A stretch of 62,671 nt of DNA from the NCBI GenBank assembly GCA_016928855.1, contig JAFGKA010000039.1, positions 1-62,671 on the forward strand, in the 5' to 3' direction. A model generated the notes under the pieces. It searched no databases. It saw nothing but the letters and a program-made list of their open reading frames with translations, and was not told the DNA's origin. Positions 6,445-53,377 of the stretch are shown here, piece after piece (the stretch's first letter is position 1; each line of letters starts with the position of its first letter). The DNA comes from Phycisphaerae bacterium. GTDB lineage: Bacteria; Planctomycetota; Phycisphaerae; UBA1845; PWPN01. The position numbers and the translations under genes were made by a program.

Positions 6445-6478
6445 CCGAATGAAACAGCCAAGAAACGGAGATGTAATC

Positions 6479-24553: not shown

Positions 24554-24559
24554 CCTCGC

Positions 24560-27604: not shown

Positions 27605-27817
27605 GCGCCTGCCCTTGGGCCACCAGGCGAGGGGCGGGGCCGGGATTCGAATCGCCTTCGGCTTGCCGCGTGCCATCAGTCCTCGTTCCCGAAAATGATT
27701 CCAATTATGGAACAATTCACCATCAACGGCTCATCTGGTCAGTTAGGGCGGCCGTCATTCTGCCGTCCTGAATGAACGCAAGGTGGGAATCGGCCTTCTC
27801 GCACGCGCCGAAACCCC

Positions 27818-28006: not shown

Positions 28007-31000
28007 ATGCGCTTCATTCGCACAGTCATGCTCGCCTGGCTCGGAGGGCTGGTCGGATTCGCCACCCCGGCCGTCGCCGCCACACCGACATGCGGATTTG
28101 CCCGTCAAGCCATCATCGTGGACGGCCGGCTGGACGACTGGAGCGGAATCCAGCCCAACGTCGTCCAAGGCCGGGAACACCTGTGGTTCGGCCAGGGCAT
28201 GACGCCGGATAGGTGGCGGGACGACAGCGACCTGAGCTACCAGTGGCGCGGTGCGTGGTTTGGCAACAAGCTGTTCTTCGCCTTCGAAGTCACCGATGAC
28301 CACGTGCTCGATCCGACACAGCCCTCTGCCTTTCTGTGCGATTGTGTCGAGATCTACATCGACTACGCCAACCGCGGCGGCCGGCGTGTCCACGTGCTCG
28401 ACGGCCGGGAGGATTGGTTCGCCGCCTGCAAGCCCGGTGAGCTGCTGGGCTACGAACTGCAGTTCCTGCCCACCCAGCCCGCCCGCGTATATCTCGACCA
28501 TGCTGACAAGTATCTGGTCGCCAAACCGCAGACCGAGCGTTTTGTCCGCGAATGGGCCGGCGAAATCGTCGCCACGAAAACGGCCCAGGGTTACTTGATG
28601 GAAATCGGTTTCGCCTTGCCCGATGTGGCGATCAGCGCGGGACGCACAATGGGTATTGAGACCGGGGTGTGCGACGACGACGGCGCCGGACGTGAGAGCA
28701 TCATGATGTGGACCGGCACCAAGGGCGACTTCTGGTTGACGATGGACGGGTACGGCAAGGCGACTCTGGCCGACGGCGGTGAACCTCGCAAACCGGAAAC
28801 GCGCCCGATCGGCAGTCTGGCCACGGGCGCCGTCGTTCTTGGCGTTCAGAACGCGGACATGAGCTGGGGCTTGCGAATCGCGGACGCGGGCCGGGCTTCA
28901 TGCCATCAACCCAGCCCCGTTCAACTGGAGTTCTACCGGGAGAGCGTCCGGAACGTACTGCCGACCAGTCGCGAGCAGCTCCGACTCTGGCAATACGCGA
29001 CAAGCCGGCCCGCCTTCGGCTGGTCCAGGCAGGACTTCGATGCGTCGGACTGGCGCCAAGGTCCCGGCGGCTTTGGAGTAACCGGTACACCCGGAGCGGC
29101 GGTGAGCACGAAATGGGATACGTCCGACATCTGGTTGCGGAATGAGTTCGACCTTGACGAAGTACCGAAGGGTCTGTTGTGGCTGGTTGTTCATCACGAT
29201 GAGGACGCCCAGCTATTCATCAACGGCGTGGAGGCCGCGAGGCTTCGCGGCTACGTCACCAGCTACGCAGAGGTGCAACTCGCGGATGAAGCCATCGCCG
29301 CCTTGAAGCCGGGCCGCAACCTGCTGGCCGTTCACTGCCATCAGACGGGTGGCGGACAATTCATCGACGCCGGCCTGGTCGAACGCACGGCCATCAGCTC
29401 CCGACGGGCTGCCGGCTACGATACGCTTGATTTCCGCTCAAAGCAGATTCTGGGGCGTGCCAGCATCGCATGCGGGTCCACTGTCAAGGTGACCGTCGAG
29501 GATCGCTGGTCCATCGCCGGCGATGTACTTCACCTGGATCGCACCGTGAAGGTTTCCGGCGACGCTCCAGAAGGCTTCCTCTCCGCCATCAATCTCCCGT
29601 TTGAGAAGCCCATGGGGTGGTCTCAGGTGGACTGGTTCGTCCCGGGAATGATCTACGGTGGCTTCGACTACCTGACCGAAACCGCCATCGGCGGCAGAGC
29701 CCACTACCAGCCAGGCCAGTTCACCATCCGCATTCGCGAAGATCGCCTGCCCGCGCCGCTCCTGGCCGCTCGCTTTGAGGATGGGCACACTTTGGCCATC
29801 CTCAATCCGGCACCCCGCGGAGACACCACGGCTGCCGACTCACTCGATATCCAGGCGATCACGCTTACCGACGGACGATTCCGGTTCGGTTCGATCGGCG
29901 CAGAAGAACGCGGCGACGGACTGTCTGTCGGATATTGGTTCCCTGGCACGGAGGGCGAAGTCACCTACCGCGGTGACACATATCCCGGCGGGCACCTGCA
30001 CCGGTGGCGGCGACGCTACCACCCGCTGGAGGACGGCCTCGAACAGCACTATCAGGTCGCGTTTCGCTTTGGCCGTTCAGAAAGCTTTCCGAATTACATG
30101 CAGGCGGCCTGGCGCTGGGCATGGAATTCCCTCAAACCGGCAGTTGTGCCAGTCGACACTGATACAGCCCGGCGCAGCCTGATCGATGCCCTCGCCTCCT
30201 GCGTTGTACAGAAGGATGGCCGGACAGGTATTCCCAATTTCGTCGATTCCATGTCGAAGGACCTGGAGAGGGCCGACCGCAAGGCCATCATGGGATTCAC
30301 CGGCAAGAATCTGGAATCCGCATACTTCATGCTGCGCGAGGCGTCCCTGCCCGGCGACAGAGAGCGCAGCCAACATCTGCGCAAGCTGGCCGAACAGATC
30401 ATCGATTCCTTCGTTCGCCTCAAGATCGATCCACCTGCCGGCGAAGGTTTCAATCTGGACGACGGCCGGCCGAAAAATGCGTTGTGGGACGAGCAGATCT
30501 ACCTGCGTTCCTTCGGCGACGATATCAAGATCCTGCTGAAAGCTTATCAGCACGAGCGCAAGGAGGGCCGCGAGCATCCGGACTGGCTGACCTGGTGCCG
30601 GCGATTCGGCGATTGGCTGCTGACGCAACAGCAGGAAGGCGGAGGCTTTCCACGAACGTGGCAGGCCGGCAGTGGCAAGGTCGTATCGGCATCGCCCAAC
30701 TCGAGCTTCAACGCGATTCCCCTGCTCACACTGCTGAGTCAGATCACCGGCGAAGCCCGCTACCTGAACGCCGCGGCACGGGCGGCGGAGTTCTCATGGG
30801 AGAACGGCCAGGCTCGCGGGCAGTTTGTCGGCGGCACTATCGACAATCCGGATGTGCTCGACAAGGAGGCGGCTACCCTGTCGCTCGAGGCGTATCTCGC
30901 GCTTTACAGAGCAACGGGCGATCATCGCTGGGTGGAGCGGGCCCGGGCCGCCGCCGATTTCGCCGAGACGTGGATCTACATCTGGGATGTGCCGATGCCC

Positions 31001-31417
31001 AAGGATGATCTCAATGCGGGCATCCACTGGAAACACAACGTTTCCACCGTCGGGCTGCAGCTCATCGCATCCGGCCATTCCTTGGTCGATGCCTACATGG
31101 CCTTTGATGCCGACGACTATGCCGAGCTGTACAGACTCACCGGGGATGCGCACTACTTCGATGTCGCGCGCCTCTTGCTGCACAACACCAAGGGCATGCT
31201 CGCCATGCCCGGCCGAACGTATGATCTGGGCGTACCGGGATGGCAGCAGGAACACTGGAGCCTGGCGCCGCGCCGTGGCTACGGCCTCCATCGCGGCTGG
31301 CTGCCCTGGGTCACGACTAGCCACTTGAACGGCATCTTCGGCGTCATGGATCTCGATCGAGACCTGCGGACACGACTGTTGAGCGATAAGTCAGACAGTA
31401 AAGGCAAGACCCCATAA
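28007..31417 (+). CDS. Secreted multidomain protein: CBM9-like domain, galactose-binding-like domain nested in an uncharacterised ~800-aa core ending in an (alpha/alpha)-barrel-like region
   Basis: ATG 28007 after AGGAG gives the signal peptide MRFIRTVMLAWLGGLVGFATPAVA. CBM9-like AIIVDGRLDDWSG ... GNKLFFAFEVTDDHV ... CDCVEIYIDY. Galactose-binding-like DIWLRNEFDL ... LKPGRNLLAVHCHQTGGGQFIDAGL. Confidence 0.8.
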   Translation: MRFIRTVMLAWLGGLVGFATPAVAATPTCGFARQAIIVDGRLDDWSGIQPNVVQGREHLWFGQGMTPDRWRDDSDLSYQWRGAWFGNKLFFAFEVTDDHVLDPTQPSAFLCDCVEIYIDYANRGGRRVHVLDGREDWFAACKPGELLGYELQFLPTQPARVYLDHADKYLVAKPQTERFVREWAGEIVATKTAQGYLMEIGFALPDVAISAGRTMGIETGVCDDDGAGRESIMMWTGTKGDFWLTMDGYGKATLADGGEPRKPETRPIGSLATGAVVLGVQNADMSWGLRIADAGRASCHQPSPVQLEFYRESVRNVLPTSREQLRLWQYATSRPAFGWSRQDFDASDWRQGPGGFGVTGTPGAAVSTKWDTSDIWLRNEFDLDEVPKGLLWLVVHHDEDAQLFINGVEAARLRGYVTSYAEVQLADEAIAALKPGRNLLAVHCHQTGGGQFIDAGLVERTAISSRRAAGYDTLDFRSKQILGRASIACGSTVKVTVEDRWSIAGDVLHLDRTVKVSGDAPEGFLSAINLPFEKPMGWSQVDWFVPGMIYGGFDYLTETAIGGRAHYQPGQFTIRIREDRLPAPLLAARFEDGHTLAILNPAPRGDTTAADSLDIQAITLTDGRFRFGSIGAEERGDGLSVGYWFPGTEGEVTYRGDTYPGGHLHRWRRRYHPLEDGLEQHYQVAFRFGRSESFPNYMQAAWRWAWNSLKPAVVPVDTDTARRSLIDALASCVVQKDGRTGIPNFVDSMSKDLERADRKAIMGFTGKNLESAYFMLREASLPGDRERSQHLRKLAEQIIDSFVRLKIDPPAGEGFNLDDGRPKNALWDEQIYLRSFGDDIKILLKAYQHERKEGREHPDWLTWCRRFGDWLLTQQQEGGGFPRTWQAGSGKVVSASPNSSFNAIPLLTLLSQITGEARYLNAAARAAEFSWENGQARGQFVGGTIDNPDVLDKEAATLSLEAYLALYRATGDHRWVERARAAADFAETWIYIWDVPMPKDDLNAGIHWKHNVSTVGLQLIASGHSLVDAYMAFDADDYAELYRLTGDAHYFDVARLLLHNTKGMLAMPGRTYDLGVPGWQQEHWSLAPRRGYGLHRGWLPWVTTSHLNGIFGVMDLDRDLRTRLLSDKSDSKGKTP

Positions 31418-31453: not shown

Positions 31454-34400
31454 GTGAGGAAGACGATGATTCGTAACCTTGTTCTGACGGGATGCTTCAT
31501 CGCGGGCCTGCCGGCGCTGGCTGCCACCAATAAAGCACATTACTACGGCCACGACGCGGTGGTGAATGAGCACGGCGTCATTTCACCGTGGTATCAAGGG
31601 CTCAACGGCCAGTGCGACTACCGCGTCCGCATCGCGGCGGAAACCCTGAAACGCTACCCATGGACGACCACCAAGGACGCCATCGCCGCGTACCCGGCCT
31701 ACGTGTTCAGCGGGCAGTGGACGATTGCCGCCGACGGCGCGATCACCCCGCTTCCCACCAGCGACTGGGACACCGCCGACATCGGCCAGCGATCGGTCTG
31801 CGTCCTGTTCGGCATGATGGACTACTACCGCTACACCGGCGACCCGGCGGCCATCGCACATCTGACCTATATGGGCGACTTCCTGCTCGATGCCTGCCAG
31901 ACGCCGCCGGAGCATCCGTGGCCCAATTTCCCCATCAGCGTCCCCATCAAAGGCAAGGTGTTTCAGAAGTGCGACCCTAACGGCATGATCCAACTCGATA
32001 TTTGCGCCAACATGGGTCAGGGCCTGCTGCGCGCTTATCAGGTCACCGGCAACCAGCGATGGTTCGCCGCCGCCAGGCACTGGGGTGACCTGCTCGCCGA
32101 ACGGTGCGACCTCGATCCCACCGCCGATCCGTGGCCGCGCTACGCCAACCCCGAGGCCGCTCCCTGGAAGAACAACAAACAGACCGGCGGTGTGGTCTTG
32201 ATCCTCGGGTTCCTCGACGAATTGATCCGCCTGGGCCACAGCGGCAAGGACGGCGCGGTTCTCAAGGCCCGCGAGGCCGGCATCCGCTACCTGGCTGACA
32301 AGTTGTTGCCTGCCTGGCACGTGGACGACACCTGGGGCCGCTACTTCTGGGACTGGGAAAACCCGACACAGTGCTGCACGCTCGCCGCCGAGGTCCCCGC
32401 TTATCTCGTCGCCCAACGGCAACTGTTCCCGAACTGGCGCTGCGACGCCCGCAACATCATGACCCTTTTCTACAACCGCACCAGCCCCGCCCCGGAATCG
32501 GGCGGCGACGTTTACAGCGGTGCTTGGGCCTATCCGGAATCCAGTTCGTGCTGTGGCCGATCGTTGTGGTATTCGCCTCTGCTCGTCGGGAGCATCCTGG
32601 GGCAATACGCAGCCGTGTCCGGCGACGCCTGGATGCGCGAGATGGCCGTGCGCCAGTTGATCCTCCAAACCTACGACATCCATGAAACCGGCGTGACCGA
32701 AGACAACATTGATGGCGGTATCGTCGTCAACGGTGCCTGGCTGAACATTGCCCATCCGCTGCCCCTGCGCTGGGTGCTGGCAGCGATCGGCTGGCTGCCG
32801 GAGGAACTGGGCGCCAGCCGCGAGAACCACATCGTCCGCTCCAGCGCAGTGGTAAGCCAGGTCCGCTACGGCGATGGTGACATTGCGTATTCGACTTTCG
32901 ACGCCCCGCCGGAAACGGTGGATGTACTGCGACTGGCCTTTGCGCCCCAGCAAATCACAGCAAACGAACGCGCGCTCAGCGAGCGTCAGGATCTTTCAGC
33001 CAACGGTTACACTGTCAAGAAACTGTCCAACGGCGACACCATCGTTCACGTTCGCCATGACAGTGCAACCAGGGTGCGAGTGCGCGGCGAAGACCCTCAG
33101 CGTGTTCTTGACGCTTCCGCCTTGACCTTTGACGGCGCCTGGACCACGCGCGAGGAGACGGAAGCCTCGGGCAAGACATTGCGGGCGACCGAGGCTGGCG
33201 GCGCTGCCGTAGCCGCCAAATTCGAAGGCAACCAGGTCCGCCTGATTGGCGACGTCGGTCCGGCGGGCGGGTTGGCGGAGGTGTTTGTCGATGGCGTGAA
33301 ACAGCTTGTCCCCGTGGATTGCTGGAATCCAACGCCTCGCAGCCGGCAGGTGCTTTATTACAGGAACGGTCTTTCTGACGGCGAACACACCTTGAAATTC
33401 GTCGCCACCGGCACGGCCAACCCTTACTCACAAGGCCGCCACATCTACGTCGACGCCGTGCAGTTCTCGGCCGAGAACGCACCGGGCGGTCCTTCCGCCG
33501 GAACCGGTCCAACAGAGGCTCAGCGGATGATCCTTGGCTATCCGGCCCGGCAGGATTACCGCGATGCCGATGGCCATCTGTGGCGTCCTGGAACGGAGGT
33601 CGTGACGCGTCTAGCGCCCCTGCGCGACACGGTGGCGGAGTGTTGGTGGACCGATGCCGTCACCGAACCGATTACCGGCACGCCCGACCCGGAGTTGTAC
33701 CGTTATGGCTACCATGCGCGAGATTTCTGGGTGAACCTCACTGTCGGCCCGGGCAAGTATTATGTGCGGCTGAAGTTTGCTGCTACACGCGGCCTGGATA
33801 CACGCAAGAACTGCTTCGACATCCTGCTCAACGGACGCAAAGTGGTTGAACGGCTCGACGTGGCCGGCACCGCCAGCGGGGTGAACAAGGCGGCCGACCT
33901 CGTGTTTAACGGTATCACTCCAAAAAACGGCATCATTGAGATCCGTTTCACCAGTCCACTGGTGGGCGACGGAGGTCAGACGGTGCGGGGCGAGGCCTTC
34001 GTGCAGGCCATTGAGATCGGGCCGGGCCCCGGCGGCCAGGGTGCCACGCCTGTTTCCTCCACAGCGTCTGCCCCGGCCGGCAACCTGCTGCTCAACCCGG
34101 GATTCGAGGAAACAAAGGCCGGCGCGCCTGCCGACAAGCACGGGCAGTATGCGGGTGACGAATGGCGTGCCGAACTCAAAGGCTCGGCCATGGTTTACCT
34201 CTGGCAGGAAAGCGCCTTCGCCGGGCGCCCGGCGGAGGGTCTGCCCGAGTTTCATTCCGGCCAGGGCGCCCTCCGCACGCACGCCGAGAAAGACTGCCAC
34301 GCCCAAATCTACCAGGACGTCGTTGTCCAACCTGGCACCACCTATACCGGCTCCGTGTGGGTGCGCGCGGTGGACCTGCGTGGCAAAGGCTTCGGGAACG

Positions 34401-37117
34401 ACCCCGCCGAGTCTGCCGCGCTCCTCCTGCTCGAACTGGACGACAACAACAAGGTCCTGAAATCACACGAACGGGTGCTGGTAACGAAGGCCGGTCCGTA
34501 CAGGCTCTTGTCGAAGACCATCACCACCGGAAGGGAAACCACCACGGTCCGATTCTCGCTGGAAACCATCCTGAAGTGCTCCTACACAGAAGGCCACGTC
34601 ACCTACGATGACTGCGCCGTTCTTCGGGGGCCTGCTGCTACACCTGCCGTGGGTGACGGCGTCGTGAAGGATCTGCTTCCCGCCGCACAAGACATGCTGC
34701 GCGGATACATGGTCAAGTCGGTCAAGCCCATGCCTGAGCATCCCGGCATGATCCGGGTCAACTACTTCTCGAAAGCGCTGCCGGAGCCCCTCTTTCGGGA
34801 CGACCAATGGGACTGGGGCGACTGTGGTGCCCGGGCCGTGCAGGCATGGATCTGGCTGCGTGAAATGACCGGTGACAGGCATTTCGGTGAAGCCGTTGAG
34901 CAGGGCGAAATCAAGGCGCTGCTTCACGTGCTGGCCCCCGACACCGGTATGCCCTTCGTTCCGGAACGCTCCAAGCCCCAGGAGGGTACTTACTACTACG
35001 AGATGTGGGATCAAGGACGCACATTGCGGGCACTGGTGGCGATGTGGCAGGCTGAGACCACCGAACAGGCAAAGACGGATTTGCGCGGCCGAATTGACAA
35101 GATGATCTCCGGACTGAGTCAGTCAGCCACACGCGGGAGCGATCCGAAGTTCGGCTCGTTCGCTATCTATCCGTTCGAAGGTGGCAGGAATGTGCCCACC
35201 AACACGTGCGCGCTTCCCGCCGCAGGGCAACTTGTCGAACCGCTCGCCGAGTACTGGGCTGCTACCGGTGACGTCACGACCCGCGAGTTTCTTGACGAAT
35301 TGCTGGCGGGTGTCTTCTCCGGCAAGGAGGGCAAGTATGCGCGCTTCGAAGAGGACGGTTCGTTCTACGGGCACTTCCACGGCCATGCCGCCACCGCTCT
35401 GGGCGTTGCCAAGTTCGGCAAGGCGCTCTGCGAAAAGGGCGAGAAGAAGCGGGGACTGGAACTCCTGCGGTGGGCGAAGAAGGTCTACGACTGGACAGTC
35501 TCTCCGCACAACGGCCACGGCGGTTCGTCGTGGGGCTGGTTCCCGGAGAACACCGGGGAAGACCAGCAGTCGGTCAAGGAATACGCCGAGATTTGCTGCG
35601 TTGCCGACATGATCGAGTTTGCCGCACTGCTTGCCGAGTGCGCTGAGTTTGACAGCCAGTTGCACGAATGGGATTCCTTATGGGATCATGTCGAACGCTA
35701 CACCTTCAACACTATCCTTCCGCTTCAGTTCAGGATCACGGACGAGTACAAGGCCGCGTTGAAACACGCCATCACTGGCAACAAGATACAGAACGGATAT
35801 GTGCAATTCGAGCTGGACGCCAATGGATGCTTCAATCACGAGACAGCGGGACATCAGACGCTGATCACGGACACCAAGTCGGCGATTTCGCAACTGACTT
35901 ATGGAGTCGCCTACGATGGGAAGCAGGCCGTATGGCGCTATAAGGCGGGAATACGTGTCCAGCCCGTAGGCTTCGACAGCGACACTTCCCGCACCGTGAC
36001 CCCCGCCGGAATAGACGGCGTGGTTCAGACCATGGACAAAGCGCTCCGGATCGAAAGTCAGTCCGTGTGCGGGGACGGGCCGTATATCGTCCGGCGCCTG
36101 CGGATCGTCAATGCGGGCCAGGCGCAACTGAGGGATGTGCGGCTTTCGTGCATGGTGAATGTGGACACCGTCGATTACGACCATGATGTGGGTCAGGTTG
36201 AGTCGGACACCGGCTGGGCAGTGGTACATGACCAAGCTGGCTCGAGCTGGGCTGGCTTTGCAGGTGACCCCAAACCCGGCTACATCACGGCTGATGATGT
36301 TCAGCAACTGGTGGCCGGAGACGGATTCGACTGGAAGCAGTCGAAACGAAGCTTTCACGGAAACGTCGCGCTGGCCGCCGGATGGGATCTTGGCGCCCTG
36401 GATGCCGGAGAGAGCAAGACCGTGACGGTAACATACGCGGGCGCATCGAACCGGTACGATTTGCACCGTGCCTTGCGCCACGAGAAGTTCCCCGAGAAGC
36501 CCGTTTCGTCAGAAAGCATCGATGCCGCTCTGGCGGTTGCAGAGAGGCTCGCCGGTTCATGGGTGGCCCTCTTCATGCCGAACGAGTGGTACTGTCGCCA
36601 GCCTGACGGGCCGGTCGAGATCTATACCGCCGGCTGCTGCGCTTACTCCGGCCCCAGAGCGCTGTATGCGTGCTGGAAGTCGGCCGTAGCCGACGACGGC
36701 CAGACGGTGAAGATACGGATGCCGGTCTGCTGCAGAAGTGAGGTCCTGATCCAGACCGTGACAGAGGGCCCGGATCTTGTACGGCAGGAAATCCGGATGC
36801 ACCAGACGCGGCTTGTTTCCGTGCGGATTCCCGACTGGGCAGATATCGGAAAGACGCAGGCCTGCAACGGCCGGGGTGACCGGCTCCAATTGCGCACGGA
36901 TGGACGTTGGCTGCAGTTGGGGAAGATCAGACAAGATACGACCGTCACCATCACCTACCCCCTTTCCGACAGGGAGTCGACGGAACGGGTTGCCGGTGCC
37001 GGCAAGAGCATGGGGTTTTCGCCGGCGACCGAGCAGCGCTCTTTCACCGCGATCTACCGCGGCAATATCGTCATCGGCATGAAGCCCCGGCCCGAAACGT
37101 TGCCTGTCTTTCCATAG
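31454..37117 (+). CDS. Giant secreted multidomain protein (1887 aa): helical-barrel regions, malectin-like domain, CBM4/9-like domain
   Basis: Signal peptide LVLTGCFIAGLPALAA. Malectin-like DADGHLWRPGTEV ... YGYHARDFWVNLTVGPGKYYVRLKFAA ... FDILLNGRKVVERLDVAG. CBM4_9-like GNLLLNPGFEETKAG. The start may be GTG 31454 or ATG 31466. Confidence 0.8.
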   Translation: MRKTMIRNLVLTGCFIAGLPALAATNKAHYYGHDAVVNEHGVISPWYQGLNGQCDYRVRIAAETLKRYPWTTTKDAIAAYPAYVFSGQWTIAADGAITPLPTSDWDTADIGQRSVCVLFGMMDYYRYTGDPAAIAHLTYMGDFLLDACQTPPEHPWPNFPISVPIKGKVFQKCDPNGMIQLDICANMGQGLLRAYQVTGNQRWFAAARHWGDLLAERCDLDPTADPWPRYANPEAAPWKNNKQTGGVVLILGFLDELIRLGHSGKDGAVLKAREAGIRYLADKLLPAWHVDDTWGRYFWDWENPTQCCTLAAEVPAYLVAQRQLFPNWRCDARNIMTLFYNRTSPAPESGGDVYSGAWAYPESSSCCGRSLWYSPLLVGSILGQYAAVSGDAWMREMAVRQLILQTYDIHETGVTEDNIDGGIVVNGAWLNIAHPLPLRWVLAAIGWLPEELGASRENHIVRSSAVVSQVRYGDGDIAYSTFDAPPETVDVLRLAFAPQQITANERALSERQDLSANGYTVKKLSNGDTIVHVRHDSATRVRVRGEDPQRVLDASALTFDGAWTTREETEASGKTLRATEAGGAAVAAKFEGNQVRLIGDVGPAGGLAEVFVDGVKQLVPVDCWNPTPRSRQVLYYRNGLSDGEHTLKFVATGTANPYSQGRHIYVDAVQFSAENAPGGPSAGTGPTEAQRMILGYPARQDYRDADGHLWRPGTEVVTRLAPLRDTVAECWWTDAVTEPITGTPDPELYRYGYHARDFWVNLTVGPGKYYVRLKFAATRGLDTRKNCFDILLNGRKVVERLDVAGTASGVNKAADLVFNGITPKNGIIEIRFTSPLVGDGGQTVRGEAFVQAIEIGPGPGGQGATPVSSTASAPAGNLLLNPGFEETKAGAPADKHGQYAGDEWRAELKGSAMVYLWQESAFAGRPAEGLPEFHSGQGALRTHAEKDCHAQIYQDVVVQPGTTYTGSVWVRAVDLRGKGFGNDPAESAALLLLELDDNNKVLKSHERVLVTKAGPYRLLSKTITTGRETTTVRFSLETILKCSYTEGHVTYDDCAVLRGPAATPAVGDGVVKDLLPAAQDMLRGYMVKSVKPMPEHPGMIRVNYFSKALPEPLFRDDQWDWGDCGARAVQAWIWLREMTGDRHFGEAVEQGEIKALLHVLAPDTGMPFVPERSKPQEGTYYYEMWDQGRTLRALVAMWQAETTEQAKTDLRGRIDKMISGLSQSATRGSDPKFGSFAIYPFEGGRNVPTNTCALPAAGQLVEPLAEYWAATGDVTTREFLDELLAGVFSGKEGKYARFEEDGSFYGHFHGHAATALGVAKFGKALCEKGEKKRGLELLRWAKKVYDWTVSPHNGHGGSSWGWFPENTGEDQQSVKEYAEICCVADMIEFAALLAECAEFDSQLHEWDSLWDHVERYTFNTILPLQFRITDEYKAALKHAITGNKIQNGYVQFELDANGCFNHETAGHQTLITDTKSAISQLTYGVAYDGKQAVWRYKAGIRVQPVGFDSDTSRTVTPAGIDGVVQTMDKALRIESQSVCGDGPYIVRRLRIVNAGQAQLRDVRLSCMVNVDTVDYDHDVGQVESDTGWAVVHDQAGSSWAGFAGDPKPGYITADDVQQLVAGDGFDWKQSKRSFHGNVALAAGWDLGALDAGESKTVTVTYAGASNRYDLHRALRHEKFPEKPVSSESIDAALAVAERLAGSWVALFMPNEWYCRQPDGPVEIYTAGCCAYSGPRALYACWKSAVADDGQTVKIRMPVCCRSEVLIQTVTEGPDLVRQEIRMHQTRLVSVRIPDWADIGKTQACNGRGDRLQLRTDGRWLQLGKIRQDTTVTITYPLSDRESTERVAGAGKSMGFSPATEQRSFTAIYRGNIVIGMKPRPETLPVFP

Positions 37118-37177: not shown

Positions 37178-40100
37178 CTATTCCTTGGCCGATTGCGCTC
37201 GCCGTATGGCCTGTGCTTGGCGAACGGCGTCAACTTGTGCCCAAGGCTGGACTTCGCAACGCCGCGCGTAGTCCTCATACATCGCTTCGAGTTGTCGAAC
37301 CTTGTCGGGCATTTCGGCGGCCAGGTTGTTCAGTTCGGCGCGATCCGCGTCGAGGTTGTACAGTTCCCAGGGCTGGGTGTACTCGCTGACCAGCTTCCAC
37401 CGCCCGGCGCGGACCGCACGGTTACCCGTGTGTTCCCAGAAGATCGCTCGGTGGCCGTCCCGCTGCCTGCCGCGAAAGACCGGCGCCAAGCTCTTGCCTT
37501 CCAGCGGGAGAATCTCCATGCCGTTATGGTATTGGGGGTACTGGCAGCGTGCCAGATCGACGCACGTGGCCATGACGTCGATGACGTGACCGACGTCGCG
37601 GCTGATGCGACCTTGCCCTGCGATGCCTTCAGGCCAATGGGCAATCAGTGGTGTGGCAATACCGCCTTCATGCGTGAAGCACTTGAGCTTTCGGAACGGC
37701 GTGTTCGAGGCGTTGGCCCAGCCGGTCCCGTAGCTGATGAACGAGTTAGCGCCGCCCCAACGCTCAGCCGGCACATCGTCGCGTCGGTTGAAGCCAAGTG
37801 GCCCGCCACCCAGGGCGCCCCCGTTGTCGGAAAGGAAGAGAATCAGCGTGTTGTCCAATTGACCGCTCTGCTCGAGATAGTCCACGATCCTGCCGACGTT
37901 CTGATCCAACCGATCGACCATGGCCGCGTAGATCGCCATGCGAAGATCCATCTCGTCTTGCTGGGCTTCGGAGAGCGAATCCCAGGCAGGCACGGGCCCA
38001 CCGCCATAATTCCTCCATGTCGGCGATTCGATGCCTTCACCACGCGACGAAAGCGCCCAACCGGGGCCGGCTATGCCCATTTCCTGCTGACGTCGATATC
38101 GTCGCCGTCGGACTTCGTCCCAGCCGATACGGTACTTGTCGCGGTAGCGGGCGATGTCATCGGGCCGGGCATGTAACGGCCAGTGCGGCGCGTTGTAAGC
38201 GATGTAGGCGAAGAACGGTTTGTCACCCCGAGATTGCGACTCCGTCATGAACCGAATGGCGTAGTCAGTGAACACGTCCGTCGTGTAGTAATCAGGTTCA
38301 AACTCGGCGATCAGCTTGTCGTCGAGCGCGAAGGGGCGCCGATAGCGGGGGTGGTTCGGCTGGAAGTAGTTCGCAGCGCCTTCGAGGACACCGTAGTAAC
38401 GATCGAACCCCCGGCGGCGCGGCCACGATCGGGGATCCAGGTATCCGACGTGCCACTTACCGGTCATCATCGTATCGTATCCACCGCGTCGGAGTACTTC
38501 CGCGATGGTGACGCAGCGGGAGGTAAGCCGTCCGCGATAACCCGGGTGGCCATAGTCTTTCGGGTCCTTCGTTCCGTCGGATGGGCGAGTCTCGCCGGTC
38601 ATCTCGCCGATACCTGCCTGGTGCGGATACAAGCCGGTCAGCAGTGACGCCCGTGTCGGGCAGCAGCGGGCCGTGTTGTAGAACTGCGTGAAGCGGAGTC
38701 CACCCGCGGCCAGTCGGTCGAGGACGGGCGTGTCGATTTCGCCACCGTAGCAACCCAAATCAGAAAAACCCAGATCGTCGGCCAATATCACGACGATATT
38801 GGGGCGGTCGCGAACCTCGGCCCGGGGTTGCGCGTTCTCCGTGGCTTTCTGCAGCTCAGGGGCTGTACTGGACCGCGGAAGGTCCTTGAGTCGACGAAAG
38901 AGATCGGGGTCCAGTTCCATCAGACCGAAGATGCCGTTCAACTGGCTGGTCGAGACCCACGGCAGCCACACACGATGCAGCCCGTAGCCGCGCCGCGGCG
39001 CCAGCGAGTAGTGCTCCTGCTGCCAGCCGGGGCCAATCAGATCGTACGTGCGCCCGGGGATCGCGACCATCGCCTTGGTGTTGTGCAGAAGGATCCGGGC
39101 GACGTCCAAGTAGTGCTCGTCGCCGGTCAGCTTGTAGAGCCTGGCGTACTCGTCGGCGTCGAAACTCATATAGGCGTCGACCAGCGAATGTCCCGACGCA
39201 ATCAGTTGTAGCCCGACGGTCGACACGCCGCGTTTCCAGTGCAGGGCCTCATTGTCGGCGTCGGCCGGCATCGGCACGTTCCAAATGTAGATCCAGGTCT
39301 CCGCGAAGCTGGCCGCCGCCTCGGCACGGTCAAGCCATTTGCCGTCGTGGGTTGCTTCGTAGAGAAACAGGTAGGCTTCCAGGGAAAGCGTCCCGGCTTC
39401 CTTGTCGAGGACGTCGGGGTTGTCGATCGTACCGCCAATGAAACGGCCGTCGGCCTGGCCATTCGACCAGCAGAACTCTCCGGCACGAAGTGCAGCCTCC
39501 AGGTACTCTGCGCTGCCGGTCATTTCGTGCAGCAGCACCAGGAGCGGAATTGCATTGTAGGAGGAGTTCGGCGAGTCGAGTTGGACGGTTCCCGTAACAG
39601 GCAGCCACGCCCGGGGGAACCCGCCGCCGGGCAGTTGTTGAGTCAGAAGCCAGTCGGCGAACTCTCGAGCCTTGGCCAGCCACTCCGAATGGACTCGCCC
39701 GTGCTCTTTCTCCCGCCGATAGGCCCGCAGCAGGGCCTTGAAACCATCTCCGAACGAGCGGAGATAGACTTCGGGCAGACCGCGATGGCCGAGCGCCGTA
39801 GTCAGTTCCCCGCTCTCGATCTTGAAGCCCTCGGCCTCCGGAGGCGACATCTTCCAGCCCAGAAATGACTGGATCACCTTCTCGCCAAGCCGGCGCAGTT
39901 CCGTCCGTCCTTCCGTGTCGTCCAGCACTGCCTCGGCAAGGAGGCACTCGGCCGATTCCAGAGCCTTGCCCGTGAAGCCCATGACCGTTTTCGGATCAGG
40001 ACGCGGCGAACCACCGGGTACGCTCCGAAACGTGTGGGGCAGGCCGGCACGGTCTTCCACTTCCATTACATTGCCAGCCAGCGTCTTGACAAGCGACTTT

Positions 40101-41098
40101 CTTACCAGATCGATGTCATGCGGATTGACTTGCGGATCGAGCGTCTGCCAAGCCCAACGCCACGCCGACGCGATGCTCCTCGCGAAATTATCTTCCCGAC
40201 CGAAGCGGAATGACACTTCGTATTGTTGAACCAGGCCATCAGCGATCGGATGGTAGCGTCGGCGCCACTGGTGGAGCTGACCGCCGGGATAGGTGTTTCC
40301 CTGGTACATCTCCTCGCCTTCGGTTCCGGGAAACCAGTAGCCGAGGGCGAGGCCGGTGTCGCGCTCCTGGCCGCCGATGGAGCCGAACCGGAGACGCTCG
40401 TCGATCACAGTGCCGGGCAGGACCGTCGTACTTTCGGCGGCTGTGGTTTCGCCGCGCGGGGCCGAGTTGAGCACGGCCAACGTCGAACCGTCGCGGAAGT
40501 GGCCGGCCACCAGCGGGGCCGGCAACCGGTCTTCGCGAATGCGCACCGTGTAGCTGCCCGGGTGGTAGTAGGCTCGCCCGCCGATGGCGTGGACCGTCAA
40601 GTTCTCGAATCCGCCGTAGATCATGCCGGGGGCAAACCACCTTACGTCGGGCCAGGCCAACCGCTGCTGAATGTGCAATGTGATTTCAGAAAGGAACCCG
40701 CCGGCGGCGCCTCCGGACACGCGCACCGTGCGTACCACCCGCAGCACCGGACCATCGATCGACCAGCGATCCTCGACGTCGATCGCCGCACCCTGGTAAG
40801 CGATGTGACTCTTGCCTGCGAGTGCATCATCGGCCTTCACCAGCGAGTCGTAGGCCGCCGACCTGCGGACAACGTCACCGGGATCCTGGCCCCAGAATTC
40901 AATCGCCGCCGGCTCGGGTTGCGATACCGAAGCGAGCCCGGCGCCCTGCACGCGAAGTCCCCAGCCCTGCGGACTCCGTACGCCGTCCACTTGGGCGCCT
41001 CCGCTCAGCCGGCCAAGCGAAATCGTCTGCTCCGCAGCGATACTGCTCGCTTGCGAGACTGACACAAGTGTGGCGACGCATACTGTTATTTGGCGCAT
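37178..41098 (-). CDS. Fusion protein: uncharacterised ~760-aa core (paralogue of the 28007-31417 core) + linker + complete Cys-type (formylglycine) arylsulfatase domain
   Basis: Real start ATG 41098 (or GTG 41107 after GGGAGA), giving the signal peptide MRQITVCVATLVSVSQASSIAA. The core is collinear with the 28-kb protein. The sulfatase domain begins at RPNIVVILADDLGFSD (38806 downward) with CCPTRASLLTG and has no signal peptide of its own. No stop lies between the two parts. Confidence 0.85.
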   Translation of the reverse strand: MRQITVCVATLVSVSQASSIAAEQTISLGRLSGGAQVDGVRSPQGWGLRVQGAGLASVSQPEPAAIEFWGQDPGDVVRRSAAYDSLVKADDALAGKSHIAYQGAAIDVEDRWSIDGPVLRVVRTVRVSGGAAGGFLSEITLHIQQRLAWPDVRWFAPGMIYGGFENLTVHAIGGRAYYHPGSYTVRIREDRLPAPLVAGHFRDGSTLAVLNSAPRGETTAAESTTVLPGTVIDERLRFGSIGGQERDTGLALGYWFPGTEGEEMYQGNTYPGGQLHQWRRRYHPIADGLVQQYEVSFRFGREDNFARSIASAWRWAWQTLDPQVNPHDIDLVRKSLVKTLAGNVMEVEDRAGLPHTFRSVPGGSPRPDPKTVMGFTGKALESAECLLAEAVLDDTEGRTELRRLGEKVIQSFLGWKMSPPEAEGFKIESGELTTALGHRGLPEVYLRSFGDGFKALLRAYRREKEHGRVHSEWLAKAREFADWLLTQQLPGGGFPRAWLPVTGTVQLDSPNSSYNAIPLLVLLHEMTGSAEYLEAALRAGEFCWSNGQADGRFIGGTIDNPDVLDKEAGTLSLEAYLFLYEATHDGKWLDRAEAAASFAETWIYIWNVPMPADADNEALHWKRGVSTVGLQLIASGHSLVDAYMSFDADEYARLYKLTGDEHYLDVARILLHNTKAMVAIPGRTYDLIGPGWQQEHYSLAPRRGYGLHRVWLPWVSTSQLNGIFGLMELDPDLFRRLKDLPRSSTAPELQKATENAQPRAEVRDRPNIVVILADDLGFSDLGCYGGEIDTPVLDRLAAGGLRFTQFYNTARCCPTRASLLTGLYPHQAGIGEMTGETRPSDGTKDPKDYGHPGYRGRLTSRCVTIAEVLRRGGYDTMMTGKWHVGYLDPRSWPRRRGFDRYYGVLEGAANYFQPNHPRYRRPFALDDKLIAEFEPDYYTTDVFTDYAIRFMTESQSRGDKPFFAYIAYNAPHWPLHARPDDIARYRDKYRIGWDEVRRRRYRRQQEMGIAGPGWALSSRGEGIESPTWRNYGGGPVPAWDSLSEAQQDEMDLRMAIYAAMVDRLDQNVGRIVDYLEQSGQLDNTLILFLSDNGGALGGGPLGFNRRDDVPAERWGGANSFISYGTGWANASNTPFRKLKCFTHEGGIATPLIAHWPEGIAGQGRISRDVGHVIDVMATCVDLARCQYPQYHNGMEILPLEGKSLAPVFRGRQRDGHRAIFWEHTGNRAVRAGRWKLVSEYTQPWELYNLDADRAELNNLAAEMPDKVRQLEAMYEDYARRCEVQPWAQVDAVRQAQAIRRAQSAKE

Positions 41099-41136
41099 TC
41101 GGTTCACGTGAGTTCTCCCACTCAGCGGGTCCGTCG

Positions 41137-42678
41137 TTACCAGAACACGACGTACAGCCCTACCGTGATGAGGATGATCGTAATGCCGATCCATCTCACA
41201 GCAGGAGAGGTGGTCATGTCGAATTCCCCGTTGATCGGCATCTGGCGCGGTTTGGCCAACGGGCGAAGCCACGTGATCACGGCCATCACCAGGACGAGAA
41301 TGATGAAGGTGACCGCGATGCGATTGAGAAACGCCATGGGCAGCATTCCCGTTGCGTTGAGTGCGTACAACGCACCGTAGGCAATCGGGTTCAGCAACAG
41401 CCCGGTCACAGCCGCAGCGGCGGGCGCTCGCTTGACGAAGAATCCGTACATGAACGTGGCCAGGACGCCCACGGTGACGAACCCCTGGAACTCCTGAATG
41501 AACTGGAAGATGCCGGCGTTCAACTTGCCGAGTTGCGACCCGATCAGGCAGCCGATGACGACGAACAGGACGGTCATCGAACGACCGATCCAGATAAGTC
41601 GCGATTGCGACGCTTGCGGGGCAAGGTGCCGTTTGTAGACGTCCATCGTGAAGATGGTCGAGGCGGAGTTGAGCATCGAGGCCAACGAGCTGACGATCGC
41701 CCCCGCAATGGCGGCGAAGATCAGCCCGCGCAGCCCGGCCGGTATCAGTTCGCGAATGAGCATCGGGAAGGCTTGGTCGCTGTTTCCGAGTCGATCGCCG
41801 AAGTGGCCGGCGGCAATGATGCCGGGAATGACGATCATGATCGGCAGGATGATCTGGATTCCCGCGGCCATGAGCACGCCGAACTGACCCTCCCGAAGAG
41901 TTCGGGCCGCCAGGGCCCGCTGGGCGATGTATTGGTTGAAGCCCCAGTAGTAGAGGTTGGGGATCCAGATGCCCAAGAGCAGGGCCGAGCCGGGCAGTTC
42001 CATCACCCGCTCGGGCAGCACCATGTGCATCTTGTCGGCGTTCTGCTGCCAGAAGGGACCGATACCGCCGACGGCTCCAAAGGCGTACGCCGTAACCGTC
42101 GATCCGCCGATCAGCAAAGCCAGTCCGAGGAAGAGGTCGGCCCAGGCGACGGACTTGAGCCCGCCGTACGTGGTGTAGAGCGCCGCGATGGCGCCGACCA
42201 GCCACACGGCGGCTGCCAGGTCTGTCCCGAAGATAGTGTGGATCGCCAACCCGCCCGAATAGGCCACCGACGAGATCGTCACGCCCACGTAGATGACCAT
42301 CATGAACACGGACATGATGTTGCGCGCGGTGCTGCTGAATCGGTATTCGAGGTACTCGGGGATCGTGTAGATGCCCGCGCGAAGTAGTCGGGGCAAGAAG
42401 AACATGGCCACGATCGCCAGCGTGATGGCCGCGATCCAATCGTAGCTGGCCACAGCCAGCCCGACGTTGCGCGCCCCGGCTCCGTTCATGCCGACGAACT
42501 GCTCGCTGGAGATGTTGGCTGCAATCAGCGACAGGCCGATGATCGGCCAGATGAGCCCGCGACCGGCGAGGAAGTAGTCCTCGCTCGTCTTCTCTCGCCG
42601 GCCCTTGTACATGCTGAAGGCGACGACAAAACCAATGAACCCGACGAATAGCGCAACGTCCGTCCAATGGAGTTCCAT
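41137..42678 (-). CDS. Sodium:solute symporter, SGLT-like (SSF family)
   Basis: 513 aa. SEDYFLAGRGLIWPIIGLSLIAANISSEQFVGMNGAG. Confidence 0.9.
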   Translation of the reverse strand: MELHWTDVALFVGFIGFVVAFSMYKGRREKTSEDYFLAGRGLIWPIIGLSLIAANISSEQFVGMNGAGARNVGLAVASYDWIAAITLAIVAMFFLPRLLRAGIYTIPEYLEYRFSSTARNIMSVFMMVIYVGVTISSVAYSGGLAIHTIFGTDLAAAVWLVGAIAALYTTYGGLKSVAWADLFLGLALLIGGSTVTAYAFGAVGGIGPFWQQNADKMHMVLPERVMELPGSALLLGIWIPNLYYWGFNQYIAQRALAARTLREGQFGVLMAAGIQIILPIMIVIPGIIAAGHFGDRLGNSDQAFPMLIRELIPAGLRGLIFAAIAGAIVSSLASMLNSASTIFTMDVYKRHLAPQASQSRLIWIGRSMTVLFVVIGCLIGSQLGKLNAGIFQFIQEFQGFVTVGVLATFMYGFFVKRAPAAAAVTGLLLNPIAYGALYALNATGMLPMAFLNRIAVTFIILVLVMAVITWLRPLAKPRQMPINGEFDMTTSPAVRWIGITIILITVGLYVVFW

Positions 42679-42693
42679 ATGCTCATCCTTGGG

Positions 42694-43056
42694 CTATCTG
42701 AGGCTTTCTTTCCGGGCTGACGGTAAGTCTGTCCGGGGTTCGATACGGCGTTCGTCGTCCATGTTGATGCGGAGGATGGCGGGCCGCTCGCGAAACGGTG
42801 CGAGGGAATCATGGCCGAAGAAGGTTGCCCACCAGTGGCCCTGCTTGTCTTGGAAGAACACGTTGTGGCCGCCGTGCGGGATGGCCAGGTACGCCTCACT
42901 CCAAGGGCCTGAAAGGTCGTCGGCAGTGGCCACCATGCAGTTGTAACAGCGCTGTGCCGTACCGACCATGCCGCTGGCAAGGCCCAAGGCGAGCAGCCAG
43001 AGCAGACCGCATTGAGCGTGAAGTGTCACACACTCCTCCCCTTTTGCAGGCGTCAT
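42694..43056 (-). pseudogene. GH43-like last-blade stub (about 90 residues of family resemblance) preceded by a signal-peptide-like segment
   Basis: ATADDLSGPWSEAYLAIPHGGHNVFFQDKQGHWWATFFGHDSLAPFRERPAILRINMD resembles the C-terminal blade of GH43-type beta-propellers. There is no room for the other blades, because the sulfatase gene ends at 43070. Confidence 0.4.
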
Positions 43057-43069
43057 GCTACTCCCCGCT

Positions 43070-44671
43070 TCAGGAAGCCCGACGAGAAGCTTCAACGGCA
43101 ACATCGGTCGCCGGGACGGGGGCCGTATCCTCGTTTCCCACGGGCCGGGTTGTTGCCGGTTCCCGGCGGGTCGGATCTTGCTCGCTTAACGATGGCAGCG
43201 ACTTTCGCCAGATCAGCAACCGCTTGGCCAGCCGCTGGGCGATGTCCGGATACCGCCCGGCAACGTTGTTCGACTCCGACGCATCTTGCGACAAGTCGTA
43301 CAGTTCCAGCCGACTCCCGTCGCGGTCCATCAGCAGTTTCCACTGTCCCTCACGAATGGCGAGACTTGGACTCCGATCGGTCGGCTTGCCCGGCTGAAGA
43401 TAGGTTCCATCTCGGCCGTATTCCCAGAAGATCGGCGTTGCGCGGACAGGCTCGTCTCCCAGGAATGCACCACTCAAATCCTCGCCGTCGAAATCAACAG
43501 GTGGCGTCTCGATCCCTGCCAGCTTCGCGAAGGTCGGAAACACATCCACCGCAGCCAGGACCGTTTGTCGAACCACTTTTCCCGCCGGAATGGTGCCTTT
43601 CCAGCGGGCGATCATCGGCATCCGTATCCCACCCTCGTAGAGACTCCACTTTCGCCCTCGGAAACCGGCCGTGCTGCCCGGCGGGTCATAACCTCGTCTG
43701 TAGTAGCTGGGCCAAGCGGTCGGGCCGTTGTCGCTGGTCAACACGATCAAGGTTCGTTGGGCGAGGCCAAGCGAGTCGATGGCAGCAACGAGGCGGCCGA
43801 TCTGCCCGTCCATTTCGTCAAGCACGGCACAGAAACGCTGTTGAAACGGATTGTCTTTGAAACGTTCGTATTTCGCGACGAGGCTTTCGCGAGGCTCGTG
43901 CGGGTCATGCACGTCGTTGAGCCAGAGATGGAGGTAGAATGGCCTGTCCTCGTTTTCCTTGATGAAGTCGATGGCCCGGTTGACATAGATCTCGGTTAGC
44001 TGGTGTTTGGCAGCCCGCGATATCGTTCCTTGCCCCAATCGCTCGCTTTGATCGGACAACCGGCCCGGCGGCAGCACCCGGTCACCCAGGCCCTCGAATG
44101 ATACCAGCGACTCCTGGAAGCCATACGCCTGGGGCAACGGCGCATCGTCCACGTCACGCCCTCCCCCCATGTGCCACTTGCCGAAATGCGCCGTTGCGTA
44201 GCCGCCTTCTCTAAACGCCCGTGCCACGCATGGCACCTCGGGGTCGAGGAAGTCGCGCATCCCGCGTGCGCGGTTTCGCTCTCGCGAGTCAAGGTACGAG
44301 TGGATCAAGTGCCGTGCCGGGTACTGGCCGGTGGTGAACGCGACGCGCGACGGAGAGCAGATCGGCGAGTTGACGTAGAACTGGGCAACGCGGACACCTT
44401 CCGCCACCAGTCGGTCGATATGCGGGGTCTTGACATCCTTATTCCCTGTACAGCTCAAGTCGCCGTAGCCCATGTCGTCAACGAGAATGAAGACTATGTT
44501 CGGCCGAACCGGCGGTGACTCACCCGGGGACACGGTCGGCCCCCCAAGGCAAACGGCGATGAGAGTCACGAACACGCAAAGTGGCTTACCGAGAATCTGC
44601 TCTCGCGAGTCCAAGCAACTCCGCGCGCCGGGCTGCCACTCATGGTACAGTCCGCTGTTCTGCATCGTCAT
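43070..44671 (-). CDS. Cys-type (formylglycine) sulfatase
   Basis: RPNIVFILVDDMGYGDLSCTG ... SPICSPSRVAFTTGQYPARH. ATG 44671 is preceded by GGGAGGA. The longest ORF reaches 44725. Confidence 0.9.
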   Translation of the reverse strand: MTMQNSGLYHEWQPGARSCLDSREQILGKPLCVFVTLIAVCLGGPTVSPGESPPVRPNIVFILVDDMGYGDLSCTGNKDVKTPHIDRLVAEGVRVAQFYVNSPICSPSRVAFTTGQYPARHLIHSYLDSRERNRARGMRDFLDPEVPCVARAFREGGYATAHFGKWHMGGGRDVDDAPLPQAYGFQESLVSFEGLGDRVLPPGRLSDQSERLGQGTISRAAKHQLTEIYVNRAIDFIKENEDRPFYLHLWLNDVHDPHEPRESLVAKYERFKDNPFQQRFCAVLDEMDGQIGRLVAAIDSLGLAQRTLIVLTSDNGPTAWPSYYRRGYDPPGSTAGFRGRKWSLYEGGIRMPMIARWKGTIPAGKVVRQTVLAAVDVFPTFAKLAGIETPPVDFDGEDLSGAFLGDEPVRATPIFWEYGRDGTYLQPGKPTDRSPSLAIREGQWKLLMDRDGSRLELYDLSQDASESNNVAGRYPDIAQRLAKRLLIWRKSLPSLSEQDPTRREPATTRPVGNEDTAPVPATDVAVEASRRAS

Positions 44672-44857
44672 CTGGTCCTCCCGATTTCGCGTGCGGTGTC
44701 GGTCGCGGTCAGCCGTCCGACACAAAACACAGTCCGATGAACCTCCGGGGACGTGAAGATCGGGTTCCTGTAACCGGTGGCCGTCGCCTGCCTGGCGGTG
44801 ATGTAGCCGTGATGTGGTCCACGCAAGCGCCGCCAGGGTGCTTCACAATGTCGTTTC

Positions 44858-53281: not shown

Positions 53282-53377
53282 CGTATGCGGCTCTGGGGTG
53301 AGCTGAGCACTTTTCGGCAGACACCCCCGTGGAGAAGTTTCGATCCCGGGTCCACTACGCGTTAGGAGAAGCAGCAC

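Follow-up and report, generated by a model that had tools for sequence, protein, structure and literature searches.

An unclassified core module of predicted six-hairpin fold is fused in frame to a formylglycine-dependent sulfatase in a Phycisphaerae bacterium

On the minus strand of contig JAFGKA010000039.1 from a Phycisphaerae bacterium (GenBank assembly GCA_016928855.1; 62,671 nt, all of it analysed and here called the window) a single gene encodes both an uncharacterized module, here called the core, and a complete sulfatase. Such a gene raises the question of whether the two modules truly belong to one polypeptide and, if so, what the core does beside its partner. An earlier note on this DNA had proposed that the core is fused in frame to a full sulfatase, and the frame is indeed uninterrupted, running from the ATG at 41098 to the stop codon at 37178-37180 with zero internal stops over 1306 amino acids (aa). 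The order of the parts is a signal peptide, a core of ~715 aa, a 26-aa linker and a complete S1 sulfatase. The gene product is probably a secreted planctomycete two-enzyme protein, in which the core and an S1_4-like sulfatase would act on one sulfated glycan and which would have originated by fusion of a gene pair.

The reality of the fusion is established by homologues with the same arrangement, which were found in a full-length word-index search of a collection of 5.8 billion clusters. The P0267 protein (1292 aa; contig L086), found in another JGI metagenome, shares the architecture of the window fusion and matches it at 86% identity with 98% coverage of the query. The core and sulfatase of the two proteins are 86.4% and 86.2% identical, respectively, whereas the linker between them keeps its 26 aa and the frame at an identity of 42%; such divergence in frame, between domains of ~86% identity, marks the linker as a true interdomain tether. 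The P0268 protein (1478 aa) has a CBM9-core-sulfatase arrangement, is 57% identical to the window fusion and has a linker of ~6 aa, and ENA, JGI and Logan each contribute a separate assembly that encodes the identical protein. Both modules are reproducibly in one frame in the window gene, P0267 and P0268, which is the arrangement that defines a hybrid of a carbohydrate-active enzyme (CAZyme) and a sulfatase. The idea that the fusion is unique is ruled out by P0267 and P0268, and the fusion is genuine, as the earlier note had argued in preference to a lost stop codon and as the fused proteins that it had suggested looking for now confirm. No protein matching both halves (query residues 107-1306) was retrieved among 1.84 billion cluster representatives at 50% identity; that search and a word search with the core only both missed P0267 and P0268, and their negative results do not mean absence.

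The junction itself has the properties of a linker between folded domains. The last core helix ends at about residue 738, so that the linker LPRSSTAPELQKATENAQPRAEVRD, which has no hydrophobic stretch, is ~26 aa long and not the ~35 residues (38807-38908) first estimated. In none of the three frames between 38700 and 39050 was a hidden start codon with a signal peptide found, in keeping with the earlier view that the sulfatase half has no signal peptide of its own. The junction contains no Ns and no long repeats, and third-position GC content is even across the core (0.76), the linker (0.73) and the sulfatase (0.73). An unfused paralogue of the core is also encoded in the window (P0031; 1136 aa) and ends ~20 residues past the last shared core helix, as had been noted. 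By BLASTP, fusion residues 78-737 align with paralogue residues 495-1153 (61% identity over 662 aa) and fusion residues 24-80 with paralogue residues 293-350 (40% over 58 aa), with the paralogue numbered from 27920. The proposed collinearity of the N-terminal ~760 residues of the fusion with the paralogue is upheld by these alignments, and both matching peptide pairs cited for it are present, but the collinearity is broken by a paralogue insert of ~145 aa. This insert (~28967-29404, plus strand) separates the first β-strands of the core from its remainder, has no Pfam match, is not found in the fusion and, from its sequence, looks like a galactose-binding-like jelly-roll domain.

The start of the gene is probably the GTG at 41107 rather than the ATG at 41098. 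A GGGAGA Shine-Dalgarno sequence lies 8 nt upstream of this GTG, and in P0267 both the GTG and the GGGAGA are kept, with ATT replacing the ATG at the position equivalent to 41098; it is because the GTG is conserved in the 86% orthologue, where the ATG is absent, that the GTG is preferred. The N-terminus, (MNR)MRQITVCVATLVSVSQASSIA followed by AEQ, is the sole signal peptide of the protein and, judged by eye from its n-, h- and c-regions, would be of the Sec type.

The C-terminal half is a complete sulfatase, with a match to PF00884 of 209.4 bits (cut-off 25) that spans residues 766-1183 and profile positions 1-299 of 301, and a further Pfam match to SGSH_C. Its closest solved homologues are 7ALL (E 8e-114) and the Pseudomonas aeruginosa arylsulfatase PAS (1HDH, E 4e-99), and 6HR5, the sulfatase domain of P36, is also among its matches in the PDB. 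The DD, CxPxR, K/H, H, DN and K positions, comprising all catalytic and metal-binding sites, align with those of PAS and 7ALL, and the loop after the DNG motif is PAS-like. The sulfatase is predicted from this alignment to be catalytically intact, with C812 as the formylglycine cysteine. The 7ALL structure is among the four deposited with the study of BT4683, which does not state the protein for each; it is taken to be BT4683 on the grounds of its grouping with PAS, an S1_4 arylsulfatase, and of a fitting residue numbering. BT4683 from Bacteroides thetaiotaomicron is an S1_4 sulfatase that acts on 3-sulfated galactose and has an open, endo-like cleft, and its R72 is conserved in the fused sulfatase. 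With 7ALL taken as BT4683, the two best solved homologues are both S1_4, and the S1_4-like label of the fused domain is a placement by nearest structures only; both homologues are stand-alone proteins, unlike the fusion. The same sulfatase subtype is also found joined to a GH2 β-galactosidase-like module in P0180 (1259 aa) and in tandem sulfatase-sulfatase proteins of ~1000 aa (P0129, P0146, P0192). An AlphaFold2 model of residues 107-1306, made for the linker and the domain arrangement, was poor in the sulfatase half (mean predicted local distance difference test score, pLDDT, of 61.5), where 3 sequences were aligned.

For the core, an AlphaFold2 model was obtained from an alignment of 39 homologues with high confidence (pLDDT 92; predicted template-modelling score, pTM, 0.92). 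Strands extend to residue 278 and helices follow, giving a twelve-helix (α/α)6 barrel with a β-sandwich in front. This combination, the six-hairpin fold with a β-sandwich, is common to many glycoside hydrolases (GHs) and some polysaccharide lyases (PLs). The best whole-chain Foldseek match in the PDB is the PL27 lyase BACCELL_00875 (5NO8/5NOK; E 2.6e-11, template-modelling (TM) score 0.43-0.45, 9% identity), followed by a second tier of β-sandwich and barrel enzymes from GH94, GH116, GH63 and GH15. With the barrel only, the top matches (TM 0.6-0.67) come from GH76, GH88 and the N-acylglucosamine 2-epimerase (AGE) family, the last represented by epimerases and isomerases, and Foldseek assigns a probability of 1.0 to structures from all eight of these families. 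The comparison with PL and GH (α/α) barrels that the earlier note had recommended therefore places the modelled core in the six-hairpin (α/α)6 glycosidase-like superfamily with an N-terminal β-sandwich, and its predicted fold is of a carbohydrate-enzyme type. The PL27 enzyme, an L-rhamnose-α-1,4-D-glucuronate lyase, likewise consists of an N-terminal β-sandwich and then an (α/α)6 barrel (PMC8377490). The order of domains is common to the lyase and the core, and the GH106, GH28 and DUF1961 genes that neighbour P0268 are rhamnose- or uronate-related; the TM score and identity are low, however, and PL27 membership by sequence was rejected, since the core family profile does not retrieve 5NO8 at E up to 10 and the likeness is structural only.

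By sequence, the core is unclassified, passing no threshold in Pfam, NCBIfam or the sequences of the PDB, which agrees with its earlier description as uncharacterized. The first ~740 residues of the fusion give only two weak, partial, sub-threshold Pfam matches, to GH76 and GH127; NCBIfam has no match for the core; and a profile search of PDB sequences with the core family gives a best E of only 0.004, to GH76 over ~90 residues. Among 39 core members scanned with Pfam, partial hairpin matches to GH127 occur in 33, to GH76 in 28 and to AGE in 21. Membership in GH76 (PF03663) was rejected at 23.6-25.8 bits against a cut-off of 25.9, with only profile positions 96-254 of 366 covered, as was membership in GH127 (PF07944), a family that also has a Cys/Zn catalytic centre, where the match is confined to ~25 residues and scores 20-23 bits (cut-off 24.9). 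These two families and AGE (PF07221) have the (α/α)6 helical-hairpin architecture in common with the core, but they match only one to three of its hairpins, below or at the Pfam gathering thresholds, and are without the conserved N-terminal β-sandwich and its REDR motif. The database names of core homologues are almost all "hypothetical protein", with one "glycoside hydrolase family 76 protein, partial" at NCBI.

Across 83 core sequences, 22 polar residues are conserved at ≥97%, and all are retained in the fused copy. They include D110, R123, Y161 and the R188-E189-D190 motif in the β-sandwich, the carboxylates D559, D565, E567, E574, E600, D641 and E695 in the barrel, and the basic barrel residues R447, R496, K566, H662, K675 and R703. 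This pattern fits a catalytic site for an anionic sugar, in a hydrolase and a lyase alike.

The link between the core and sulfatases extends to unfused genes. Scanning one genome per species gave 79 core-family loci, labelled by record title as Planctomycetota, Verrucomicrobiota, Acidobacteriota, Bacteroidota, Chloroflexi, Calditrichia, Truepera, the actinobacterial Gaiellaceae and Pseudactinotalea, Ignavibacteria and Sumerlaeales. A sulfatase lies within 10 kb of the core at 16 of the 79, so that genomes other than the window do link the core to sulfatases, the absence of which would have spoken against the earlier proposal. At seven loci, which belong to Planctomycetota, Verrucomicrobiota and Bacteroidota, a separate gene for this sulfatase subtype directly adjoins the core and shares its strand; in L008-L011 and L043 it lies downstream of the core, in L013 and L016 upstream. 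The adjoining sulfatases are 46-52% identical to the fused domain, whereas the four other sulfatases of the window are 25-33% identical to them. In the five downstream loci the core is followed by a stop codon, and in four of the five a sulfatase signal peptide is plainly readable before the RPN(I/V) sequence. These separate, adjoining genes in relatives suggest that the ancestral state was a two-gene pair, the core and then the sulfatase, and the fusion would have arisen by joining the two same-strand neighbours with loss of the stop codon, the intergenic spacer and the sulfatase signal peptide.

This appears to have happened more than once. In a neighbour-joining tree (200 bootstraps), the window fusion groups with P0267 (100%) and these two with the unfused P0001 (94%), P0268 groups with the unfused L008 protein (95%), and all three fused proteins form one group in 0% of replicates. 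Furthermore, the sulfatase half of P0268 and the stand-alone sulfatase of L008 are 78% identical to each other, and the window sulfatase is ~48-50% identical to either. The tree groupings, the sulfatase identities and the differing linker lengths indicate at least two independent fusions.

Sulfatases are not the only recurrent companions of the core. Over the 79 loci it recurs with sulfatases (16), CBM9 (15), a single GH43 type (13) and the symporter (7); matches of the GH43 partner are restricted to the uncharacterized GH43 structures 3KST and 4QQS, which give no clue to substrate. One Opitutales locus combines the core with GH43, CBM9 and AraC, and L080, in the same record as L016, has SusC/D, BNR_2 and five sulfatases near the core. 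The neighbours of P0268 include GH28, DUF1961 and GH106, and a Bryobacteraceae (Acidobacteriota) locus has the core with a TonB-like outer-membrane protein and no sulfatase. The core is also fused to Peptidase_M24 (Xaa-Pro aminopeptidase/creatinase fold), which is C-terminal in P0114 and N-terminal in P0121; P0114 (locus L090, 8001-11363) has 23 member sequences and neighbours that include a TonB-like outer-membrane protein, an enolase-superfamily protein, a cupin and GH95. The Peptidase_M24 fusions may hint at glycopeptide substrates. Taken together, the data indicate that the core family is a general part of glycan-degrading loci, of which only some branches are coupled to a sulfatase. The neighbours hint weakly at rhamnose or fucose and at uronic acids, and, as a weak guess, the substrate may be a sulfated glycan with much deoxyhexose (for example rhamnose or fucose) and uronate (for example glucuronate or galacturonate).

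A precedent for such a protein is P36 of Formosa agariphila, from the ulvan utilization locus (6HR5), in which an (α/α)6-barrel glycan-cleaving module and a formylglycine-dependent S1 sulfatase are likewise joined in one polypeptide. In P36 (GH78-S1_25), the S1_25 sulfatase removes the 3-sulfate of a terminal rhamnose (Rha3S) and the GH78 module then removes the rhamnose (PMC8511951). The partner there is a recognized GH78 and the sulfatase an S1_25, whereas the window fusion combines an unclassified core with an S1_4-like sulfatase; the window protein is also from a planctomycete whose relatives are, by their organism labels, mainly of soil-type lineages. Modelled on P36, sequential two-step action is likely for the fusion. 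A sulfated oligo- or polysaccharide would lose a sulfate ester to the sulfatase, and the core would cleave the glycosidic bond exposed by desulfation, or the order would be reversed; both steps would occur consecutively in the periplasm or outside the cell, with the 26-residue linker as a flexible tether between the enzymes, and the released sugar could be imported through the sodium:solute symporter whose gene immediately precedes the fusion. The core would thus be a hydrolase or lyase that shares its sulfated substrate with the sulfatase, as the earlier note had supposed; that the two modules catalyse consecutive steps is inferred from the recurrent fusion and the conserved adjacency.

Other explanations of the gene can be weighed against this two-enzyme interpretation. 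The most sceptical is that neighbouring genes were joined in assembly or sequencing by a deletion or misjoin at 38800-38950. It would be in line with exact-protein look-ups of the fusion, which returned no record with either start codon, with the 0 matches of a linker-specific degenerate DNA pattern against JGI metagenome contigs, and with the separate core and sulfatase genes in the closest species genomes. Against it stand the 86% orthologue from an independent metagenome, whose linker is of equal length but diverged, a second fusion reproduced in three assemblies, and a junction with uniform codon-position GC and no cryptic signal peptide, repeats or Ns, and such an artefact is highly improbable. 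The fusion could instead be real and neutral, an accidental deletion between operon neighbours that left the domains independent, with neither channelling nor coupled specificity. The rarity of fused forms (three clusters against hundreds of unfused ones), a linker free to vary in sequence and in length (26 aa against ~6 aa) and the joining of the same sulfatase subtype to a GH2 module and to a second sulfatase would all suit a neutral event. It is nonetheless an unlikely explanation in view of at least two independent origins, the ~86% conservation of both domains after fusion in the window lineage and the same-strand adjacency kept over three phyla, and a shared pathway would follow even if operon partners had fused neutrally.

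A further alternative concerns the core, which might be an epimerase or isomerase of the AGE-like type, or a scaffold that binds glycan without catalysis and offers it to the sulfatase: mannose isomerase and the 2-epimerases of N-acylglucosamine and cellobiose have the top barrel-only TM scores (0.61-0.67), and 21 of 39 core members have a weak Pfam GlcNAc_2-epim match. However, AGE enzymes are cytoplasmic single barrels, whereas the core is secreted and has an N-terminal β-sandwich, as in GH15, GH65, GH94, GH116 and PL27. The conservation of at least 22 polar residues at ≥97%, with seven barrel carboxylates among them, indicates catalysis over binding, and the core loci are typical polysaccharide-utilization loci; this alternative is quite unlikely. 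Several observations do count against coupled action of a glycan-cleaving core and sulfatase on one sulfated glycan. Three fused clusters stand against more than 360 unfused homologues, and so rare a fusion may give little advantage. The best barrel-only TM scores are to epimerases and isomerases and not to hydrolases. At 63 of the 79 loci, including all of those labelled Acidobacteriota, Terriglobia or Bryobacteraceae, there is no sulfatase within 10 kb, which suggests that the core family is not intrinsically specific for sulfated glycans, and next to P0001, which of the unfused relatives is closest to the window fusion, there is no sulfatase. Finally, E335 of BT4683, which binds O2 of galactose, is Gly in the fused sulfatase, and S1_4 is a very large, polyspecific subfamily (SulfAtlas; PMC9825549); the specificity of BT4683 is therefore not transferable, and neither the sulfate position nor the sugar can be inferred. 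The two-enzyme protein remains the probable reading.

The positions of the fusion, its parts and the related features of the window are collected in Table 1.

Table 1. Coordinates of the fusion gene, its domains and motifs, and other features in the window
Feature	Position	Strand	Evidence or remark
Core-sulfatase fusion coding sequence	37178..41107	-	1306 aa from ATG 41098; 1309 aa from GTG 41107 (probable start); stop codon 37178-37180
Putative Sec-type signal peptide, (MNR)MRQITVCVATLVSVSQASSIA/AEQ	41030..41107	-	n-, h-, c-region pattern
Core N-terminal β-sandwich (predicted), residues 24-303	40190..41029	-	AlphaFold2 model, strands E2 to E278
Motif RIREDRLPAP, residues 187-195	40514-40540	-	Family-invariant; β-sandwich
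Core (α/α)6 barrel (predicted), residues 305-738	38885..40186	-	AlphaFold2 secondary structure, Foldseek
Motif GGTIDNPDVLDKEA	39395-39436	-	Invariant; barrel
Motif GWQQEH	39011-39028	-	Invariant; barrel
Interdomain linker LPRSSTAPELQKATENAQPRAEVRD, residues 739-764, 26 aa	38807..38884	-	After last core helix
S1 formylglycine-dependent sulfatase domain, S1_4-like, residues 765-1306	37181..38806	-	Pfam PF00884
ADDLG	38768-38782	-	Sulfatase catalytic motif
CCPTR, residues 812-816	38651-38665	-	Sulfatase catalytic motif
GKWHVG	38444-38461	-	Sulfatase catalytic motif
APHWP	38177-38191	-	Sulfatase catalytic motif
SDNGG	37817-37831	-	Sulfatase catalytic motif
RKLKC	37679-37693	-	Sulfatase catalytic motif
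Unfused paralogue: signal peptide, CBM9, ~145-aa insert, core	28007..31417	+	Pfam, BLASTP
Sodium:solute symporter	41137..42678	-	Pfam SSF E 4e-62; 38-nt gap upstream of fusion
796-aa protein without family	13494-15884	-	Weak GH15-like ("oligosaccharide amylase") match
919-aa protein without family	15921-18680	-	Weak GH15-like ("oligosaccharide amylase") match
1887-aa protein with malectin domain, no other family	31454-37117	+

The fusion gene is the last of a minus-strand run that comprises an AraC-type regulator, a sulfatase (43070-44725), the symporter and the fusion, and probably shares an operon with the symporter. The symporter that directly precedes the P0267 fusion in L086 is 93% identical to that of the window, and the order of symporter and then fusion is kept. 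In L086 a CBM9-GH43 protein precedes this pair. In the window, an 87-aa remnant that is 76% identical to the C-terminus of that protein lies at 42697-42957 (minus strand) inside the open reading frame 42694-43104, and the first ~390 aa are replaced by the sulfatase at 43070-44725; the window GH43 gene seems to have been truncated by rearrangement. Elsewhere the window encodes GH123, an OprB porin and three further sulfatase genes, one of them a partial sulfatase match. The secreted 796-aa and 919-aa proteins are mutual paralogues (24% identity), and these two and the 1887-aa protein were ruled out as distant copies of the core by BLASTP and hidden Markov model searches.

A block of sugar-acid catabolism genes on the minus strand (18718-27715) encodes a GFO/IDH/MocA oxidoreductase, a second sodium:solute symporter, two amidohydrolase_2 proteins, a creatininase-like protein, an enolase-superfamily dehydratase and a ROK-family regulator, and could serve the non-phosphorylative breakdown of a deoxyhexose or hexose. 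On the plus strand, a tandem gene pair at 4879-7999 has DUF1254 and DUF1214 in each member, and a DUF3300 gene adjoins a DUF2950 gene at 52169-54307.

Large pools of carbon consist of sulfated glycans, and many enzymes that open up these glycans are still to be found. The principle of the fusion is not new, since sequentially acting glycosidase-sulfatase hybrids are already documented; new here are an unclassified six-hairpin partner family and its unusually clean link to sulfatases. This family of ~720-aa cores comprises hundreds of homologue clusters from many phyla that are labelled "hypothetical" and lie outside Pfam, NCBIfam and the solved structures, and two independent fusions together with side-by-side genes in three phyla provide a concrete, testable link of the core to a sulfatase. 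A bolder view, tentative and on balance doubtful, is that the core is the founder of a new CAZy family (a GH or a PL27-like lyase) found in at least eight phyla, with one branch that has specialized, jointly with an S1_4-type sulfatase, in deoxyhexose-uronate sulfated glycans of freshwater or soil; algal or cyanobacterial exopolymers and sulfated glycoproteins would be candidate substrates. If this were true, the two sulfatase fusions and the two Peptidase_M24 fusions would be direct clues to a substrate class without a known degradation pathway. A core shown to be active would establish a new CAZy family, and polysaccharide-utilization loci in planctomycetes, verrucomicrobia and the Bacteroidota of soil or freshwater would be better annotated as a result.

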